From: Lachnospiraceae bacterium
GTDB taxonomy: Bacteria > Bacillota > Clostridia > Lachnospirales > Lachnospiraceae
DNA length: 64,000 nucleotides
NCBI GenBank assembly: GCA_045628965.1
Contig: JAZQQI010000006.1
Span: 104,271 to 168,270, forward strand
Direction: 5' to 3'
Made by a program: the position numbers and the translations under genes. The first letter of the stretch is position 1; every line of letters starts with the position of its first letter. Of the stretch, positions 13,268-21,404 are shown piece by piece. A model generated the notes under the pieces. It worked only from the letters and a program-made list of their open reading frames with translations. It did not search any database and had not been told where the DNA came from.

Positions 13268-13684
13268 ATGAATACATTCAATTTACATATTCTGGCAGCC
13301 GAACGTGATTTTTTTGAGGGAGAATGTGAAAGTCTTATAGTTCCCATTACCGACGGACTGTACGGAATTCAGGCTAATCATAAGAGTATGGTTGCCGCCA
13401 TAGTTCCGGGAGAATTGACAATAACATTACCGGGAGGGGAGAAAATCGAGACTGTGGTTTCTCAAGGTGTTTTGATAGTATCATCCAATGAAGTTCGAAT
13501 TTTGGCAGATACAATCGAAACAGAAGACGAACTTGTTAAAAATGCTGAAATTCGTGCCCAAGAGGACGAAAAAGAAGCGGCACTTCAAAAAAAGAGCATA
13601 CAGGAATTTAAAAGCGCTCAGATTTGGATGGCGAGAGAAAATTCCAGATTGAAAAGACGGAACCGAAACGAAAACAGATACTAA
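13268..13684 (+). CDS. atpC: F1 subunit epsilon
   Basis: N-terminal beta-sandwich pattern (GLYGIQANH, VSQGVLIVS) with a C-terminal helix; last gene of the operon. Confidence 0.9.
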   Translation: MNTFNLHILAAERDFFEGECESLIVPITDGLYGIQANHKSMVAAIVPGELTITLPGGEKIETVVSQGVLIVSSNEVRILADTIETEDELVKNAEIRAQEDEKEAALQKKSIQEFKSAQIWMARENSRLKRRNRNENRY

Positions 13685-13717
13685 AAAAGAATGGCGATTA
13701 TTCGACATTCTTTTTTT
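13683..13717 (+). terminator. Bidirectional-type terminator after the atp operon
   Basis: AAAAAAGAATG...CATTCTTTTTTT. Confidence 0.75.
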
Positions 13718-13813: not shown

Positions 13814-13861
13814 ATATTCAAGTATTACTTGAATATGAACTTCAACTTCAAACTGCTGTAA
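13814..13861 (+). promoter_or_regulatory. Palindromic operator, copy 1 (ATATTCAAGTA-T-TACTTGAATAT) within a duplicated leader
   Basis: Perfect 11-1-11 inverted repeat at 13814-13836; 13816-13861 matches 15901-15946 at 40/46 nt. Confidence 0.8.
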
Positions 13862-13911
13862 CTATGGTGCTTCATAGAATATTATTGAAACAACGAAAGG
13901 AGAACAAACAA

Positions 13912-14517
13912 ATGGCAAATTTGAATACATGGTATCCGACAATCGAAGTTGAATCTGCAAAGGGAATAAGAGAAGTATCGTTAAATACGAGGCATTTGAT
14001 GAACAGATGCATTTTCCTTACGGGAGAAATTGATGCGGAGACAGCAGGAAATTTCCTCTCGGAATTGCTCTTCTTGGAAAATGAGTCCGAAGAACCGGTA
14101 ACAATATATATTAACAGCCCCGGCGGCGAAGTTGATGCAGGCCTCTTGATATACGATGCCATACAGGGGAGCAGACTTGAAATCAACACTGTATGCACAG
14201 GAAGGGCAGCGAGCATGGCGGCGTTAATATTCGCTTCGGGACGAAGAGGACGAAGATACATAATGAAACACAGTAAGGTAATGATACACGAACCGCTTAT
14301 TGCGAACGGATTCGGCGGCTCGGCATCTTCGATAAAGAACATAGCCGACAGCATATTGGAAACAAGAGAGGTGGTAAACGGAATACTTGCTGAACTTACC
14401 GGCAGAACAATCGAAGAAATAAATGAAGCGACGGTTTACGACAATCTGATGAATGCCGACGAAGCAATAGAATTCGGAATGTGCGATAAGGTAACGGATA
14501 CAATAAAGATTAAATGA
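13912..14517 (+). CDS. clpP: ClpP-family serine protease subunit (atypical, accessory copy)
   Basis: IYINSPGG, AASMAA (Ser), VMIHEP (His), YDNLMNADEA (Asp). GAAAGGAG RBS before ATG 13912. Confidence 0.9.
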   Translation: MANLNTWYPTIEVESAKGIREVSLNTRHLMNRCIFLTGEIDAETAGNFLSELLFLENESEEPVTIYINSPGGEVDAGLLIYDAIQGSRLEINTVCTGRAASMAALIFASGRRGRRYIMKHSKVMIHEPLIANGFGGSASSIKNIADSILETREVVNGILAELTGRTIEEINEATVYDNLMNADEAIEFGMCDKVTDTIKIK

Positions 14518-14530
14518 AGGGGGGATAAAA

Positions 14531-15805
14531 ATGGAAAAGAATACGATGATTTTGGGACAGGATGTTTCTTTCAGCCTCGATTGCAGGCAAACGAGACTTA
14601 ACAATAATGTTTTGGTTGTGGGAACATCGGGCGCGGGAAAAACGAGAAGCATAGTAACACCGAATCTTCTACAGGCGAGCGGAAGTTACGTAATTTCCGA
14701 CCCGAAAGGTACTCTTTATAAAAAATACAAAGCCTATCTTGAAGGCAAAGGATACACGGTCAAAAAGCTGGATTTTACAGATCCGAAAAATTCTTCTCAT
14801 TATAACTTCTTTGAATATATAAAATCCACTCAGGATATCATGAAGACTGCTCATATACTGACATACAGCAGCGAGATGAGCGGCACAAACGAAATGTTTT
14901 GGCAGGAATCCACTCAACTTCTTTTGCAGGCGGTAATGGCACTTTTGATAGAGCAGGATAATAAAAAATTACAAAATCTTCGGTATATGATGGATTTAAT
15001 CTCCAGATGCCAAATAAATGAGAATGACAGTTCGTCTGCGACACAGTTGGATTTATTGATGAAAGCTATGAAAAATAAAAATACAGACAGCTACGCGGCC
15101 AAAACTTACGAAAAATTCCGAATTGCGGCGGGCAGAACGTTAAAATCGATTCTTATATCGGCTTTTGCAACTCTTGGAAATTATGATACGCCGGAAATAA
15201 ATGCGATGACGGAATATGACGATATAGATATTCCTTCGCTGGGAAAACAAAAGACGGCAATCTTTGTAATAGTAAGCGATACGGAACGATCGATGGACGG
15301 TCTTGTCAACATATTTTACACGCAGACGATGAATGAACTTTGCAGATATGCGGATAAAGAATGCGAAGACGGCTGCCTTCCGATACCGGTGAGGTTTATA
15401 ATGGATGATTTCGCGACAAACTGCAAAATAGAAGAATTCCCGAGAATGATATCATCCATAAGGTCGCGAGGAATATCGACAATGCTTATGATTCAGGCTG
15501 AATCGCAACTTGCAAAGTGCTACGGATATGATGGCAAAACCATAATCGGAAACTGTGATACATACGTATATATGGGCGGCAACGACATTGAGACGGCGGC
15601 CTCTGTGGCGGAAAGATGCGATGTGCCGATGAAGAAAATCTTATACATGCCGGTAGGGACTGTTTGGATATTCAGGCGCGGACAAAATCCGATACAAACT
15701 TTGAACTTCGATATAGATACTTACCTTGCCGAAAAAGGTCTGAACGAAAATAAAGTAACAGAGATTGTTTGTGAAAACAGTATTTTGGAAGAGGAGCCGA
15801 GATAA
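14531..15805 (+). CDS. VirD4/TraG-like coupling-protein-family ATPase lacking the N-terminal membrane anchor
   Basis: NNVLVVGTSGAGKT, VISDPKG, PVRFIMDDF, ISSIRSRGIS, IQAESQL and IIGNCDTYVYMG; no hydrophobic N-terminal helices. Confidence 0.85.
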   Translation: MEKNTMILGQDVSFSLDCRQTRLNNNVLVVGTSGAGKTRSIVTPNLLQASGSYVISDPKGTLYKKYKAYLEGKGYTVKKLDFTDPKNSSHYNFFEYIKSTQDIMKTAHILTYSSEMSGTNEMFWQESTQLLLQAVMALLIEQDNKKLQNLRYMMDLISRCQINENDSSSATQLDLLMKAMKNKNTDSYAAKTYEKFRIAAGRTLKSILISAFATLGNYDTPEINAMTEYDDIDIPSLGKQKTAIFVIVSDTERSMDGLVNIFYTQTMNELCRYADKECEDGCLPIPVRFIMDDFATNCKIEEFPRMISSIRSRGISTMLMIQAESQLAKCYGYDGKTIIGNCDTYVYMGGNDIETAASVAERCDVPMKKILYMPVGTVWIFRRGQNPIQTLNFDIDTYLAEKGLNENKVTEIVCENSILEEEPR

Positions 15806-15900
15806 TAAAAATTGACGCAAATCACGGTGAAGTGATAAACTGTTTTTGGATAAATGACAGAAGTCAAAACAGTTGAATGTAACGTATGTATTTATCTGCA

Positions 15901-15946
15901 ATTCAAGTAATACTTGAATATAAACTTCAACCTATGACTGCTGTAA
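15901..15946 (+). promoter_or_regulatory. Palindromic operator, copy 2 (ATTCAAGTA-A-TACTTGAAT) within a duplicated leader
   Basis: Perfect 9-1-9 inverted repeat at 15901-15919; starts 96 nt before ATG 15997, the same offset as copy 1. Confidence 0.8.
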
Positions 15947-15996
15947 TCTATACGGCAAGGTCGATATACTTGAGTTGTAGAAAGGAAGTGATACGA

Positions 15997-16827
15997 ATGA
16001 GCATAGGAACAAAGATAGCAGAAAGAAGAAAAGAATTGAAAATGAGCCAGCAGGATCTGGCCGAAAAAGTCGGAGTTTCTTTCCAGGCGGTAAGCTTGTG
16101 GGAGAGAGACGAGTGCCTTCCTGAGACGGAAAGGTTACTGGAGATAGCCAAAGTGTTAAGCACTAAGGTTTCATGGATTCTGGAAGAAGAAGGTGCAGAG
16201 CCGAATCGATGGGAATTAAAAGATGCGATGTTCTCGATAGAAAATATGGAGAAGAAGGTTCGCGAGTATGCCAGAGCAAAGGGGATGAGCGAATCATTAA
16301 AGGCCTTGAAAATCGCAAAGACAAAGCATGAAGGCCAAGTCAGAAGCGGAAAAGACAAGGTTCCGTACATAATTCACCCTCTGATGCTCGCCTGCCACGC
16401 AATCGCACTGAAGGTTGACAATGATAACCTGATTGCGGTATGCCTGCTTCACGATGTCGTCGAAGACTGCGATGTAACGCTCGACGAACTCGATGTAAAC
16501 GATGAGATAAAAGAAGCGGTCGGACTTCTGACCTTCAGGGTAATCGAAGGAAAAACCAAAGAAGAATCAAAGGCGGTTTACTACGATAAAATCAAGAAAA
16601 ACAAAACGGCCTGCATGGTCAAAGTGCTCGACCGGTGCAACAATATCTCCTCGATGGCAACAAGCTTCTCAAAAGCCAAAATCGCATCCTACATAGATGA
16701 AACCGAGAAGTACGTAATGCCGCTTCTGGATGTAATCAAACATGAATACGATGACTACTACGAAGCAGCGTTCCTTGTGAAATACCAAATGAGGAGTATA
16801 CTCGAATCACTGAAAAGACTTGTGTAA
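15997..16827 (+). CDS. XRE-family HTH fused to a RelA/SpoT-type HD hydrolase (small alarmone hydrolase/Mesh1-like)
   Basis: IAERRKELKMSQQDLAEKVGVSFQAVSLWE (XRE HTH); HEGQVRSG, PYIIHP, LLHDVVED and KVLDRCNN (hydrolase motifs). RBS favours ATG 15997. Confidence 0.9.
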   Translation: MSIGTKIAERRKELKMSQQDLAEKVGVSFQAVSLWERDECLPETERLLEIAKVLSTKVSWILEEEGAEPNRWELKDAMFSIENMEKKVREYARAKGMSESLKALKIAKTKHEGQVRSGKDKVPYIIHPLMLACHAIALKVDNDNLIAVCLLHDVVEDCDVTLDELDVNDEIKEAVGLLTFRVIEGKTKEESKAVYYDKIKKNKTACMVKVLDRCNNISSMATSFSKAKIASYIDETEKYVMPLLDVIKHEYDDYYEAAFLVKYQMRSILESLKRLV

Positions 16828-16848: not shown

Positions 16849-16884
16849 AAGCAACTCAAACGATGAAGTTTGAGTTGCTTTTTT
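16849..16884. terminator. Terminator between the convergent HD-hydrolase and alarmone-synthetase genes
   Basis: AAGCAACTCAAAC-GATGAA-GTTTGAGTTGCTT, with A/T runs on the flanks. Confidence 0.8.
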
Positions 16885-17662
16885 ACCCTTCAAGAGTTCT
16901 GTTCATGTTTTCCATTTTTGCTTCTGCTTTATAAATAAGCATGCTGCATTCTTTAAGCTCCTTGTCGAAATTTGAGGTATTCTCAGAATATAATGATTTG
17001 TATTTTATGTCATGTTCGAGACTTGCCCAAAGGTCCATAGCAAGTGTTCGAATCTGAAGTTCGACGGGGACATACTGCTTTTTGTTCATGAAATAAATGG
17101 GAACGCGGATTGTCATGTGAAGACTTCTGTACCCGTTTTTCTTCGGCTCTTCTATATAGTCTTTAATTCGCATTACCTGCAAATCGTCTTGGGCAAGAAT
17201 TCGGTCACGTATGAGATAAACATCCTTTATATAAGGACAGACAACTCTTATTCCGGCAATGTCGTAGATGTTATTGCATGCGGAATTAAGAGTGAGCTCG
17301 AGATTCTTTTTTTGAAGCTTTCCCAAAATGCTTTTGGCTGATTTGAGCCTTGTATCGATGTGATGAATGGGACTTCGAAGCTTTCTGAATTCAAATTCGT
17401 CCTGAATGATTTCAAGACGGGATTTTGCTTCGCTCATTGCCGAGTTATACATAAGAAGAATCGGGTCGATTGTCTGTGAGAAGATTTCGTCCATATCGAC
17501 CAAATCTTCCATGTTTCCGTGTGTTCCTGAAGCGGGGACGATACTGTAAATTTCAATTGTATCATCGGACGTTAACTCGATGGCCTCTTCGGCTTCATCG
17601 GATATTATTTCTATTTGTTTTGTTTCTTTGTAAACTGTTTTTTCTTTCTTTTTAAAATTCAA
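16883..17662 (-). CDS. Small alarmone synthetase (RelP/RelQ-like GTP pyrophosphokinase)
   Basis: RLKSAKSILGK, DIAGIRVV, KDYIEEPKKNGYRSLH and ELQIRTLAMDLWASLEHDIKYK. TTG at 17662 chosen from GAGG spacing; the start is uncertain. Confidence 0.92.
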   Translation of the reverse strand: MNFKKKEKTVYKETKQIEIISDEAEEAIELTSDDTIEIYSIVPASGTHGNMEDLVDMDEIFSQTIDPILLMYNSAMSEAKSRLEIIQDEFEFRKLRSPIHHIDTRLKSAKSILGKLQKKNLELTLNSACNNIYDIAGIRVVCPYIKDVYLIRDRILAQDDLQVMRIKDYIEEPKKNGYRSLHMTIRVPIYFMNKKQYVPVELQIRTLAMDLWASLEHDIKYKSLYSENTSNFDKELKECSMLIYKAEAKMENMNRTLEG

Positions 17663-17693
17663 AATAACTAACCTCACAAATCAAGATATCGAT

Positions 17694-17838: not shown

Positions 17839-17876
17839 ATATTAAGTAGTGTAATAATATATTGGCGGGTGAATGT

Positions 17877-19745
17877 ATGAATATTCAGGTTCAGCTTTGC
17901 GGACTGATTGTCATATTTTTAATAATGCTTTTCTATTACGGAAATAAGAAAATAGGCCTTTTTACGGAGGCTGTTTTTACTCGTGCTCTGAGCGGTTCTT
18001 TTATCTGTCTATGTCTTGACATTCTGTCGGTTGTAATGATTGTTTACAGTGCAACGATTCCGGATTTTTGGGTAAAAGTTGTTTGTAAAGCGTACCTTGT
18101 GTCTCTTCTTTGGATGGGTTTTGCAGGATTTGATTATGAGATGACAGAACTTGTTACTGAGGCGAGATACCATAGACTGATTCGTATTTTTATGCTTCTC
18201 GGTGCAATTGAGTCGCTTGTTATTTTTCTTGCTCCGATCAATTATTTCCTCGACGGAGAGGTTGTTTACAGCTACGGACTCAGTACAACGCTCACTTATA
18301 TTTTCACGCTTATCTATATTTTATGCACGGTAGTTATTCTTTTTGTTCAAAGAAAAGTTATAAACAGCAGAAGACGTACCGCTACAACCATTTGGATGAT
18401 ACTTTGGTTTTCGTCAGCACTGACTCAGTTCTTCTTTAACGAACTTCTTCTTGTCGGCTTTGCGATTTCCATGGGAATGCTTACGATTTTTATTATGCTG
18501 GAGAACCCCGAGGCAATGCAGGACAGACGTATCGGATGCTTTAACTCGCATGCGCTTTTGATGTTTTTAAAGCAGACATACGAAAGAAAAGAGTCTTACG
18601 GTGTAATGGATATTCTTATCGAGTCGGCTGATTCGGAGAATGATTCCATGATAAAATCCGATGTTGTATTTGCCGCAGTATTTGAATATTTTGAAAATAG
18701 GAAGGGATATTCCGTATTTAAAAATGTTGATGATGAACTTTTGATTTTCACAAAGAGAAAAGACAATCTTAAAATCGAAAAAGAATTTGAAGATTTTTAC
18801 AATAAAAAAATCGCATCGAAGTACAATACTGACGTCAAAATAATAGTGCTTGACGATACCAATAAGGTTAAAAATTATGATGACCTTTTTGCAATATTGA
18901 AGATGTCTGCGATAAATGTTTCGGCTCAAAGCGAGTATGCGCGTTTTACTTTGGGAGAAGAGGCCGTAAATAAATATTACAGATATCACGAAGTTGTAAA
19001 AGAGATAGAACTTGCTCTTTCGGAAGATCGTGTGGAGGTGTTTTATCAGCCGATTTATTCGAATGCGAAAGAAAGATATGTTTCGTGTGAAGCCCTTGCG
19101 AGAATCAGAAGAAAGGACGGAACGCTTCTTTCGCCGGGAGAGTTTATTCCGGTTGCGGAGGACTCGGGTCTTATAGTTCAACTTGGAGAAAGAGTATTCA
19201 CTAAAGTTTGCCAATTCCTGAATATTAATCAGAATATAAAAAACATGTTGGATTATGTTGAAGTAAACCTTTCTGTGGCGCAGTTCGAAGAAGATAATCT
19301 CGCTGATAAGTTCATTAGAATTATGCAGAAATATGATATCGAACCTCATAAAATCAACCTTGAGATTACAGAAACGGCTTCGATTCAGACCAAAAAGATG
19401 CTTCTTGAAAATATGAACAGGTTTATCGATTACGGAGTAAAGTTTTCGCTTGATGATTTCGGTAAGGGCGAATCAAATCTTATGTACGTTGTGGAAATGC
19501 CTGTTTCCATTGTTAAGTTGGATATGGATATGACTAAGGCATATTTCGTTGAGCCTAAGGCAAAATGTGTTGTGGCAGCTACGGTAAGAATGGCACATGA
19601 ACTCGGTCTACATGTTGTAGCAGAGGGAGTTGAAGACAAAGACGAACTTTCCGCCATGAGAGAAGAAAAAATAGATTTCATTCAGGGTTATTATTTCTCA
19701 AAACCGGTAAAAGAATCGGATTTCATAAAAATGCTTACATTATAA
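17877..19745 (+). CDS. Membrane-bound EAL-domain c-di-GMP phosphodiesterase (multi-TM N-terminus, degenerate GGDEF)
   Basis: About seven N-terminal TM segments; YQPIY, CEALARI, NLSVAQF, LEITE, LDDFGKG and AEGVE. Confidence 0.9.
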   Translation: MNIQVQLCGLIVIFLIMLFYYGNKKIGLFTEAVFTRALSGSFICLCLDILSVVMIVYSATIPDFWVKVVCKAYLVSLLWMGFAGFDYEMTELVTEARYHRLIRIFMLLGAIESLVIFLAPINYFLDGEVVYSYGLSTTLTYIFTLIYILCTVVILFVQRKVINSRRRTATTIWMILWFSSALTQFFFNELLLVGFAISMGMLTIFIMLENPEAMQDRRIGCFNSHALLMFLKQTYERKESYGVMDILIESADSENDSMIKSDVVFAAVFEYFENRKGYSVFKNVDDELLIFTKRKDNLKIEKEFEDFYNKKIASKYNTDVKIIVLDDTNKVKNYDDLFAILKMSAINVSAQSEYARFTLGEEAVNKYYRYHEVVKEIELALSEDRVEVFYQPIYSNAKERYVSCEALARIRRKDGTLLSPGEFIPVAEDSGLIVQLGERVFTKVCQFLNINQNIKNMLDYVEVNLSVAQFEEDNLADKFIRIMQKYDIEPHKINLEITETASIQTKKMLLENMNRFIDYGVKFSLDDFGKGESNLMYVVEMPVSIVKLDMDMTKAYFVEPKAKCVVAATVRMAHELGLHVVAEGVEDKDELSAMREEKIDFIQGYYFSKPVKESDFIKMLTL

Positions 19746-19789: not shown

Positions 19790-21404
19790 CAGACTGCAGA
19801 CAAACCCCTTTTCAAAACGAGATGTTTTTGAAGAGGGGTTCATTTTTTGAGATTTTATGCGATTTTGATGACTATAAATCGCGAAAAGTCAAATAAGTGC
19901 GATATATGGGTGCCTATTAGCCCCATTCTTTTCTTAATTCTTGCCATTTTTTTAAGATTCATGCACGCAAATGTGAGCCCGACTTTCATTTCCATTCGGG
20001 CTTTTCCTATCATATTTGTGTATCTGAATCCATGTGCTTCTTTAGCAGTTCCAAACAACCTTTCAATTGTTTCTTTTCGCTTGGAATAAAGTTCCTTCAT
20101 TCCCTCTGTATAGCGAATATCTTCTGCCATTTCCATGTATTCTTCCCAGACATGTCTTGTGACTACTTTGACATGATTCTTTGATTCCGTACATTGATTA
20201 AGATAAGGACATTTCTCACAGATTTCCGCGCAGCTTTTATACTCTTTATAACCTTCCTTGTTAGTTGTTGTATATTTTAGGATTTCATCATTGGGGCATA
20301 TATAGCAATCATAGTATTCATCATAAACGTATTCATATTTTTTAAAGAACCCTTCTTTAGTCATTGGTCTTTTATACGGGAAGAGAGGTGTCTTACCATC
20401 ATCTATGATTGTTTTGGCTATCGCCGGTGTTTTATATCCTGCATCTGCAATGATTGTTTCACAATCAAGATTTCGTATCTTTTCATAGATGGCAGGAAAT
20501 GTTCTGCTGTCATGTTCATTACCTGGATGAACTGTATATCCTAAAATCCATCCGTATTTATCGCAGGCGGTTTCTACTGCGTATGCGAATACCTGTTTAT
20601 GTTCTCCTTTATGAAACCATCCGCTTTCGGGATCTGTTGTACTTACCTTTATTTCCTTTCCGCCTGATGCTCCGCCTTTGTTATTATCATCGTCATCGTC
20701 ATCATCTTTATCTTTAAGAGGTTTCTTGCCATGAAGTTCACGGTCTTCGTTTATCTCTTTTTTTAACAACTCTTCATAAAAAAGGGCTTCTTCTTTGGCG
20801 AATTGTTTCTCCATCTTTTTATTGTTTGCACATGCTTTCACATGAGTGGCATCAATAAATATCTCTTTGGGATCAACAAGATTTAACTTATAGCATTCCT
20901 CAAGAATACGTGCAAAAATCTGTTCAAACAGATCCGTATCTTTAAATCTTCTTGTATAGTTTTTTCCAAAGGTGGTGAAGTGGGGAACTCTGTCGGTAAG
21001 ACCAATACCGAGGAACCAGCGAAAAGCGACATTTACTTCGATTTCTTTCATTGTCTGTCGCATAGAGCGTATACCATAAAGGTATTGAATAAAAGGTATT
21101 TTAATAAGCGTTACCGGATCCATACTTGGACGGCCGTTATTCGGACAATACTTCTCTTCTACAAGATCGTATATGAAAGTCCAGTCAATCGCTTCATCTA
21201 TAAGACGAAGCAGATGATCTTGAGGAACCAATTCGTCTGTACAAAACATCTGAAGCTGACTTCTGTTCTTGTCAGTATTCTGAGTCATCATAAGCAATAC
21301 CCTCCATGACTCTATTATACCACAAAAGTGCCTATTTTACGCGGTTTTTAAGCAATTTCAAAAGAAAAATCCACGGAAAATCCGTGGACTTTGTCTTCAC
21401 TCTG
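19790..21404 (-). mobile_element. IS1182-family insertion sequence, apparently intact (1615 bp)
   Basis: Terminal IRs CAGACTGCAGACAAA / CAGAGTGAAGACAAA (13/15); flanked by a 25-bp direct repeat; single transposase ORF. Confidence 0.9.
19855..21291 (-). CDS. IS1182-family DDE transposase
   Basis: DELVPQDHLLRLID, GRPSMDP, FRWFLG, IFIDATH, ADAGY and RKETIERLFG motifs. Confidence 0.92.
   Translation of the reverse strand: MMTQNTDKNRSQLQMFCTDELVPQDHLLRLIDEAIDWTFIYDLVEEKYCPNNGRPSMDPVTLIKIPFIQYLYGIRSMRQTMKEIEVNVAFRWFLGIGLTDRVPHFTTFGKNYTRRFKDTDLFEQIFARILEECYKLNLVDPKEIFIDATHVKACANNKKMEKQFAKEEALFYEELLKKEINEDRELHGKKPLKDKDDDDDDDNNKGGASGGKEIKVSTTDPESGWFHKGEHKQVFAYAVETACDKYGWILGYTVHPGNEHDSRTFPAIYEKIRNLDCETIIADAGYKTPAIAKTIIDDGKTPLFPYKRPMTKEGFFKKYEYVYDEYYDCYICPNDEILKYTTTNKEGYKEYKSCAEICEKCPYLNQCTESKNHVKVVTRHVWEEYMEMAEDIRYTEGMKELYSKRKETIERLFGTAKEAHGFRYTNMIGKARMEMKVGLTFACMNLKKMARIKKRMGLIGTHISHLFDFSRFIVIKIA

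Follow-up and report, generated by a model that had tools for sequence, protein, structure and literature searches.

In the window analysed here, i.e., a stretch of 64 kb from contig JAZQQI010000006.1 of a Lachnospiraceae bacterium, a gene encoding a ClpP-like serine protease is directly followed by a gene encoding a soluble P-loop ATPase related to the type IV coupling proteins (T4CPs) of conjugation. These two genes constitute a conserved and co-inherited two-gene operon, and not a part of a three-gene unit. A first-pass annotation had grouped them with a third gene located just downstream, encoding a regulator of the XRE type fused to an HD domain of the (p)ppGpp-hydrolase type (XRE-HD), and had proposed that the three formed one alarmone-responsive system for stress proteolysis or for anti-phage or anti-toxin defence. 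Considering the evidence laid out below, we give about an even chance to the reading that the T4CP-derived ring ATPase and the ClpP-like protein act together as a dedicated ATP-dependent protease, whose operon is located behind a copy of the XRE-HD operator.

The association of the two genes is first apparent from their conservation. Homologues of the ATPase number 3252 at E < 1e-5, most of them being 405-425 amino acids (aa) long and 60-71% identical to it, and the exact sequence of the window ATPase has no record in the protein collection. Genomic context was examined in 35 genome loci plus one further, 33 of which offered enough upstream sequence, and in all 33 the gene immediately 5' of the soluble ATPase gene is ClpP-like, down to 34-36% identity and including a metagenome-assembled genome of the Oscillospiraceae. 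The pair is also present in L044/L046, L048, L049, L051, L131, L135-L137, L138, and L139 and, overall, a ClpP-like gene adjoins the soluble ATPase gene in 41 of the 45 assessable related loci. The gaps between the two genes are mostly of 60 nt or less (13 nt between the stop and start codons in the window, a 4-nt overlap in L138), and the pairwise identities of the ClpP-like proteins and of the ATPases across loci are correlated (r = 0.89). As such, the partnership of ClpP and soluble T4CP put forward in the first-pass annotation is a conserved one, the pair being syntenic across related loci. Some variation on this theme occurs, namely the order ATPase-ClpP-ATPase in L139 (2089-5188), with a divergent HTH_3 gene upstream and two ATPase paralogues only 41% identical to each other, both carrying the DD-type Walker B motif described below, an apparently swapped order in L050, and, in L022, an inserted gene which splits the pair, both halves keeping the same promoter motif. 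A further exception, in L033 (1545-2210), is a degenerate ATPase copy deleted for residues ~161-257 and ending after residue ~321, and lacking a ClpP-like gene on its 5' side; no other ATPase copy seen was clearly decayed.

The ATPase itself is matched by the Pfam families T4SS-DNA_transf (PF02534), TrwB_AAD_bind (PF10412), and TraG-D_C (PF12696), as well as by the NCBIfam model NF045973 “VirD4-like conjugal transfer protein, CD1115 family” with a score of 341 bits (cutoff 250) over positions 2-369 of the 442 of the model. The maximum Kyte-Doolittle hydropathy over 19 residues is 1.19, which indicates that the protein has no transmembrane (TM) helix, and its Walker A motif begins as early as residue 31. 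The AlphaFold2 model (mean predicted local distance difference test score, pLDDT, of 82.6, with a disordered tail at 407-424) finds its best Foldseek matches in Cag-beta (8dol) and TrwB-deltaN70 (1e9s and 1gki), with a template modelling score of ~0.65 and E from 1e-13 to 1e-16, followed by the HerA chains of the SIR2-HerA and DUF4297-HerA complexes. TrwB-deltaN70 is an engineered soluble fragment of TrwB, the length of which is similar to that of the window ATPase. The profile matches, the hydropathy and the model thus agree with the first-pass assignment of the gene product to the coupling-protein family without a TM anchor. Among twelve members sharing 34-62% identity, invariant positions comprise G31, G34, and K37 of Walker A, DDFATNC at 292-298, R311, R313, Q322, and Q326. 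Walker B reads MDDFATNC in the window, and its two aspartates are invariant in the ClpP-linked clade, hence referred to as DD-type.

Compared with the conjugative T4CPs VirD4, TraG, and TrwB and with the CD1115 family, the ClpP-linked ATPase keeps the RecA-like nucleotide-binding domain (NBD), the all-alpha domain, and the Walker A, RSR, and Q motifs, it is ~37% identical to plasmid T4CPs, and it scores above the NCBIfam cutoff. It differs from them by (i) the lack of the N-terminal TM anchor and of the ~90-150 extra residues found in conjugative members, for which 1-2 TM helices are predicted in the representative set, (ii) a Walker B with DD instead of DE, and (iii) the absence in its vicinity of the VirB4, VirB6, or relaxase genes to which T4CPs are linked. 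In a control set of 76 canonical CD1115-type T4CPs retrieved from a metagenome scan (35-40% identity), the proteins are all extended N-terminally by ~110-150 aa, Walker B is LDEFAN wherever the motif was detected, and no ClpP is encoded within 5 kb of the T4CP gene (0/76 loci). Homologues of VirB4 and VirB6 accompany 35 and 48 of these 76 canonical loci, respectively, against none of 50 DD-type loci. On annotated plasmids, T4CPs of 530-623 aa are encoded among VirB4, VirB6, PrgI, and PcfB genes, and 1310 of the 1916 plasmid records matching the ATPase are predicted to be conjugative. Of the best 150 clusters at 50% identity in a representative library of 1.84 billion proteins, ~100 are DD-type, with Walker A ~30 residues from the N-terminus and no predicted TM helix, and ~25 are DE-type with 1-2 predicted TM helices. 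Net charge of the core (-6 for DD-type versus -4 for DE-type) was considered as a separator of the clades and rejected, the difference being of no use. A phage origin was likewise rejected, as the T4CPs in phage and viral collections are nearly all canonical, the exceptions being a single pair (L131) and a single variant without ClpP (L128).

These comparisons bear directly on the possibility that the ATPase is the remnant of a decayed integrated conjugative element (ICE), adjacent to ClpP by chance. The score of the ATPase above the cutoff of a conjugal-transfer family and the presence of an insertion sequence (IS) element 4 kb away would fit such an origin. Loss of the anchor, a DD Walker B, and a ClpP neighbour nevertheless co-occur throughout a large and diverse clade of full-length proteins (34-70% identity, ~100 clusters at 50% identity) with invariant catalytic motifs, the DD-type contexts are chromosomal and free of VirB4 and VirB6, and the single degenerate copy, in L033, is different in nature, with its internal deletion and missing ClpP. 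The remnant explanation is thereby effectively refuted, and is scarcely credible.

The open reading frame (ORF) of the ClpP-like gene spans 13864-14517, its likely start at 13912 being preceded by an AAAGGAG ribosome-binding site. The product scores 173.6 bits with Pfam CLP_protease and its alignment with ClpPs of known structure covers the full length (152 bits), Ser101, His126, and Asp177 matching the catalytic triad, in agreement with the intact triad reported in the first-pass annotation. It stays below the equivalog level, with 163.7 for TIGR00493 against a cutoff of 308.6 and every NCBIfam ClpP model under its cutoff. Across the ATPase-linked clade, Ser is present in 27/27 sequences, His in 28/28, and Asp in 24/28, the remaining four carrying Asn instead. 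This clade bears its own signature, namely H[E/D]P instead of HQP and an insertion of 2-4 residues after Pro-Leu, the HEP signature and the insertion being confined to ATPase-linked ClpPs. In the docking pocket, numbered as in E. coli, the aromatic residue is lost at the Phe82 equivalent, while the Tyr62, Phe112, and Leu114 equivalents are kept. Judging from its sequence, the ClpP-like protein is a catalytically intact ClpP paralogue. In a module-bearing genome (L029), a separate tig-clpP-clpX cluster is located 5 kb from the ATPase gene.

Alternatively, the protein could be a second ClpP isoform, forming mixed rings with ClpP1 or served by ClpX or ClpC, and the T4CP-like protein, expressed from the same transcript, could act as an adaptor, a regulator, or a DNA-directed factor without ever docking on ClpP. 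Organisms with several ClpPs are common (e.g., C. difficile with ClpP1 and ClpP2), three of the docking-pocket residues are kept as just described, and replacement of the catalytic Asp by Asn, as in four clade members, is known in ClpP isoforms needing a partner ring. Moreover, a ClpX-derived fragment, matching ClpX residues ~173-251 and ~357-407, is found directly 5' of the ClpP-like gene in L018 (4894-5296), and the DD Walker B makes a strong motor less likely. On the other side, an adaptor gene is not usually found in such strict adjacency, at such short distances, and with such co-inheritance, and the insertion together with HEP occurs only in ATPase-linked ClpPs. The C. difficile clpP2 gene has no such ATPase neighbour; it was also considered as an instance of the same system and rejected, its neighbours being bclA3, a glycosyltransferase gene, and AraC/GntR regulators. 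All in all, the second-isoform explanation appears rather unlikely.

Under the preferred reading of a dedicated protease, the ATPase would have descended from a Firmicute CD1115-type T4CP, from which it would have kept the NBD and the all-alpha domain while losing the membrane anchor and changing Walker B from DE to DD. The ATPase ring would select substrates and hand them to the chamber of the ClpP-like protein, or gate it, and in doing so would fill the role that ClpX, ClpA, or ClpC plays for canonical ClpP. The XRE-HD protein, encoded just downstream, would govern the two transcription units and might do so in response to nucleotides of the alarmone type. More tentatively, and with a confidence somewhat short of even, it is proposed that a non-AAA+ ring ATPase of the FtsK-HerA/TrwB class is the dedicated partner of a specialised ClpP and that the two would represent a new class of compartmental protease in gut Clostridia, the all-alpha domain being repurposed for protein or protein-DNA substrates.

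Several points weigh against a dedicated protease. (i) It is synteny, and synteny only, that suggests physical or functional coupling of the ATPase to the ClpP-like protein. (ii) A DD Walker B may mean slow hydrolysis and would then suit a switch or a gate better than a processive unfoldase. (iii) The predicted six-fold ring of the ATPase would have to be matched with a seven-fold ClpP. (iv) Since the ClpX-docking pocket is partly changed and partly kept, the ClpP-like protein could still use ClpX or ClpC. (v) Inspection of the clade consensus and of the tails by eye, with no pattern search, brought out neither a conserved IGF-like loop nor a C-terminal docking motif, the C-terminal tails being variable, charged, and disordered. 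(vi) A “DDFATNV” variant of the ATPase, which may be a sister or ancestral subclade, has no ClpP neighbour in two loci, i.e., L128 (4989-6281), where, on a putative viral contig, its neighbours are a tyrosine recombinase (integrase), a DNA methyltransferase, and a lysozyme-like protein, and L140 (770-2992), where it has a C-terminal extension of 300 aa and adjoins rpsB-tsf. (vii) Among the longer representatives, no fusion of ClpP with the ATPase was found, their N- and C-terminal extensions carrying no ClpP domain. (viii) Finally, transcription shows only in a few sparse metatranscriptome contigs over portions of the clpP-like and XRE-HD genes, a weak sign of expression.

Regarding the regulator, XRE-HD shows HTH_3 (48 bits) and the N-terminal region of TIGR00691 (60.8 bits), with Pfam HD_4 just under its cutoff (26.0 against 27.2). 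Its matches in the PDB are hydrolase domains of Rel, Mesh1, small alarmone hydrolase (SAH), and (p)ppApp hydrolase for the HD part and the P22 C2 repressor for the N-terminus. The fusion described in the first-pass annotation is therefore borne out by profiles, structures, and conserved motifs, the hydrolase assignment being a prediction. The HD catalytic motifs (RxxGxPY..HP, LLHDxxED, and DRxxN) are at least 90% conserved in 106 homologues, and the family, with more than 1000 homologues of ~276 aa, is widespread in Lachnospiraceae. The C-terminal domain thus resembles Mesh1/SAH and the Rel/SpoT hydrolase domains and the N-terminus, with its 17-bp palindromic operator, the XRE/Cro-C1 repressors, but what distinguishes XRE-HD from both is the union of the two domains in a single protein. 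No description of such a fusion was found in a poorly targeted literature search.

The palindrome TTCAAGTAnTACTTGAA, of 17 bp, occurs at exactly two sites in the 64 kb, where 0.03 are expected and none of 100 shuffles gave two. Both copies lie inside a block of ~48 nt common to the promoters of the clpP-like and XRE-HD genes (Table 1), and the operator shared by both transcription units is thus as the first-pass annotation had it. The operator palindrome (TTCAAGnnnnnCTTGAA) and the TTCAAy...TGCTGT block following it are conserved 92-103 nt upstream of XRE-HD orthologues, i.e., at ~1620 in L141 and ~1500 in L142 (75% identity) and at ~4898 in L042 (49%). The simplest reading of these sequences is that the autoregulatory promoter/operator of the regulator was copied before clpP in this lineage, so that the regulatory link to clpP is real but local. 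With the operon located behind this copy, the regulator almost certainly acts on both promoters in this genome, presumably as a repressor. The distribution of the operator defines it as one of the whole XRE-HD family and hints at variable regulons. In L041 (~7548), the operator precedes an unrelated gene of 93 aa.

To the single three-gene system of the first-pass annotation, several observations lend weight: the operator common to both promoters, the absence of any terminator found between the ATPase gene and the XRE-HD promoter, the Rel/SpoT hydrolase motifs kept in the HD domain, the adjoining RelP-type synthetase gene, and the frequency of XRE-type regulators among the nearest neighbours of the pair (11/145). 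Against it, an HD domain beside the ClpP/ATPase pair is absent from all other related loci, including those of the closest ATPase relatives (70% identity), which have no XRE-HD nearby and only a small HTH_3 gene three genes upstream. Conversely, the seven XRE-HD homologues whose surroundings were inspected lie in six distinct and unrelated contexts with no ClpP, T4CP, or small alarmone synthetase (SAS) gene nearby. The three-gene model is consequently considered very improbable. From the proposed self-regulated module, the shared operator in this window and the conserved ClpP/ATPase pair stand, and the XRE-HD gene drops out as a constituent; alarmone-responsive expression could not be upheld either, its evidence being the HD fusion and a neighbouring relP-like gene that is not conserved. 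Small XRE regulators (~100 aa, ~30% identical to the HTH part) are nonetheless found next to the pair in seven or more other loci, so that some XRE control of the pair seems recurrent. A toxSAS reading was rejected as well: a toxSAS pair consists of an SAS toxin and an SAH antitoxin in a co-directional bicistronic operon, whereas the SAS here is RelP/YwaC-like and convergent, and no SAS gene is found beside XRE-HD homologues elsewhere.

The wider genomic context speaks of housekeeping or signalling rather than of defence. The pair is found in chromosomal housekeeping or signalling regions, the flanks of which are stable and syntenic within lineages, and its 145 nearest neighbours include Ser/Thr kinases (17), XRE helix-turn-helix (HTH) regulators (second most frequent), Hsp70 (4), DnaJ (3), and GrpE (2). 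Searched against PADLOC-DB v2.0.0, the ClpP-like protein gave only a marginal and unrelated match (14 bits, E = 0.006) and the ATPase only mad8 (22 bits), with no convincing defence model; XRE gave generic HTH matches and the neighbours kinase-domain matches only. With neighbours that are not defence islands, the anti-phage or anti-toxin role advanced in the first-pass annotation is not sustained, which further disfavours the three-gene model. In one subclade, the motif TGTAAAsTT-N5-TGAAA precedes several same-strand operons (L009, L010, L014-L017, L019, L020, L022, L024, and L031; e.g., at 2020, 7262, 9316, and 15360 in L014), namely those of the ClpP-like/ATPase pair, of HTH-FHA-kinase-kinase, and of GrpE-like/Hsp70-like proteins, against a background of 0.003 per 220 nt. 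This motif hints at a common regulon of signalling or proteostasis flavour; it is not enriched in the window. In L039, L044, and L139, i.e., in different genomes, recurrent runs of small same-strand genes (Metallophos, PHP, UPF0158, HAD_SAK_2, and FliG_C-like) were observed beside the XRE-HD family and the ClpP/ATPase pair.

The dedicated protease can also be envisaged in a more substrate-specific form, in which the pair would be a host-domesticated module against conjugation or mobile elements, the T4CP acting as a decoy that binds incoming relaxase-DNA or other substrates of type IV secretion systems through its all-alpha domain and delivers them to ClpP. Such a role would be in keeping with the origin of the ATPase in the CD1115 family, abundant on Firmicute conjugative plasmids and ICEs, with the retention of the substrate-binding all-alpha domain, and with the occurrence of the ClpP-less sister variant in an element carrying an integrase, suggesting that the origin lies in mobile elements. 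It is set against the absence of defence-island context and of any PADLOC model, the stable syntenic housekeeping or signalling flanks, and the promoter motif of one subclade, common to FHA/kinase and Hsp70/GrpE operons, which points to cellular proteostasis or signalling. The anti-conjugation version is accordingly deemed improbable.

In the window, the unit under study lies between the terminator of the atp operon and a convergent terminator (Table 1). Both terminators and the order of the three same-strand genes are as given in the first-pass annotation. Its statement that relaxase, VirB4, integrase, and ClpX/ClpC genes are missing also agrees with the present results, VirB4, VirB6, and ClpX having no tblastn match within the window and ClpC, relaxase, and integrase being absent among its large ORFs, which encode signalling and metabolic proteins. 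The product of the relP-like gene scores 113.7 bits with Pfam RelA_SpoT, its best PDB matches being RelP (6ewz, 178 bits) and YwaC (6fgk). The first-pass annotation of the unit had left out the identity of this gene, the IS transposase, and the lack of a terminator between the ATPase gene and the XRE-HD promoter. The adjacency of a synthetase gene to that of a regulator with a hydrolase domain is a suggestive pairing, which is not kept beside XRE-HD homologues elsewhere. The wider window is rich in signalling genes, encoding hybrid histidine kinases, GGDEF and HDOD proteins, and a chemoreceptor-like protein.

Table 1. Features in and around the ClpP-like/ATPase operon, in positions of the 64-kb window
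Feature	Position	Strand	Remarks
Intrinsic terminator of atp operon	13683..13717	+	Hairpin then U-run, -13.6 kcal/mol, z = -3.7 versus shuffles; upstream boundary
Promoter/operator block, copy 1	13814..13861	+	Perfect palindrome TTCAAGTAtTACTTGAA at 13817-13833; 95 nt 5' of clpP-like ATG
ClpP-like serine protease, 201 aa	13912..14517	+	Pfam CLP_protease; ATPase-linked ClpP clade
Soluble T4CP-like P-loop ATPase, 424 aa	14531..15805	+	Pfam and NCBIfam matches; NBD and all-alpha domain
Promoter/operator block, copy 2	15899..15946	+	Palindrome TTCAAGTAaTACTTGAA at 15902-15918; 95 nt 5' of XRE-HD ATG
XRE-HTH fused to predicted Rel/SpoT/Mesh1-type HD hydrolase domain, 276 aa	15997..16827	+	Pfam, NCBIfam and PDB matches
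Bidirectional terminator, common to XRE-HD and convergent relP-like gene	16849..16880	.	13-pair stem with T-runs; downstream boundary
RelP/YwaC-type small alarmone synthetase	16883..17677	-	Pfam RelA_SpoT, PDB; neighbour outside conserved unit
Membrane protein with C-terminal EAL (c-di-GMP phosphodiesterase) domain	17862..19745	+	
IS transposase with DDE_Tnp_1_6 and DUF772	19855..21297	-	

Respective to known systems, the pair resembles ClpXP, ClpAP, and ClpCP in that the gene of a ClpP-family protease, with conserved core, triad, and N-terminal region, here shares an operon with that of a P-loop ATPase of the ring type. It differs from them in that the partner there is an AAA+ protein whereas the ATPase here belongs to the FtsK-HerA/T4CP branch, with no IGF/LGF-type loop seen, and in that the ClpP paralogue has HEP rather than HQP, the 2-4-aa insertion, and an altered pocket, canonical clpP-clpX being encoded separately. 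The genetic pairing of an ATPase of the FtsK-HerA superfamily with an enzyme effector is also found in HerA-NurA, SIR2-HerA, and DUF4297-HerA, but the effectors of these complexes target DNA or NAD+, as nucleases or NADases, while the candidate effector here is a compartmental protease outside any defence context. To our knowledge, the ATPase partners of ClpP characterised so far are all AAA+ unfoldases. No description of ClpP paired with a VirD4/TraG/T4CP or FtsK-HerA protein was found in the literature searched, which leaves out most subscription journals. The ClpP/soluble-T4CP pair may thus be an undescribed kind of ATP-dependent protease, i.e., a Clp-type protease with a non-AAA+ partner candidate.

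As the ClpP-linked ATPases exceed the NCBIfam CD1115 cutoff, automatic annotation calls them conjugal transfer proteins, and public names of homologues (P0011, P0106, and P0108) are indeed “type IV secretion system protein VirD4” or “conjugative DNA transfer family protein”. A systematic mis-annotation of these chromosomal ATPases is therefore probable and could inflate counts of conjugation genes in gut Clostridia, and hence in surveys of the gut-microbiome mobilome; a simple rule, namely a DD motif, no TM anchor, and a neighbouring ClpP gene, would separate them. The fusion of XRE-HTH to a Rel-type HD domain, for its part, represents a large uncharacterised family with a defined operator and a candidate nucleotide-responsive repressor. 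As for the pair, a T4CP-class partner of ClpP, if true, would add to the ways in which a self-compartmentalised protease is known to be fed and would mean that a coupling ATPase of conjugation can be domesticated for a cytoplasmic job.

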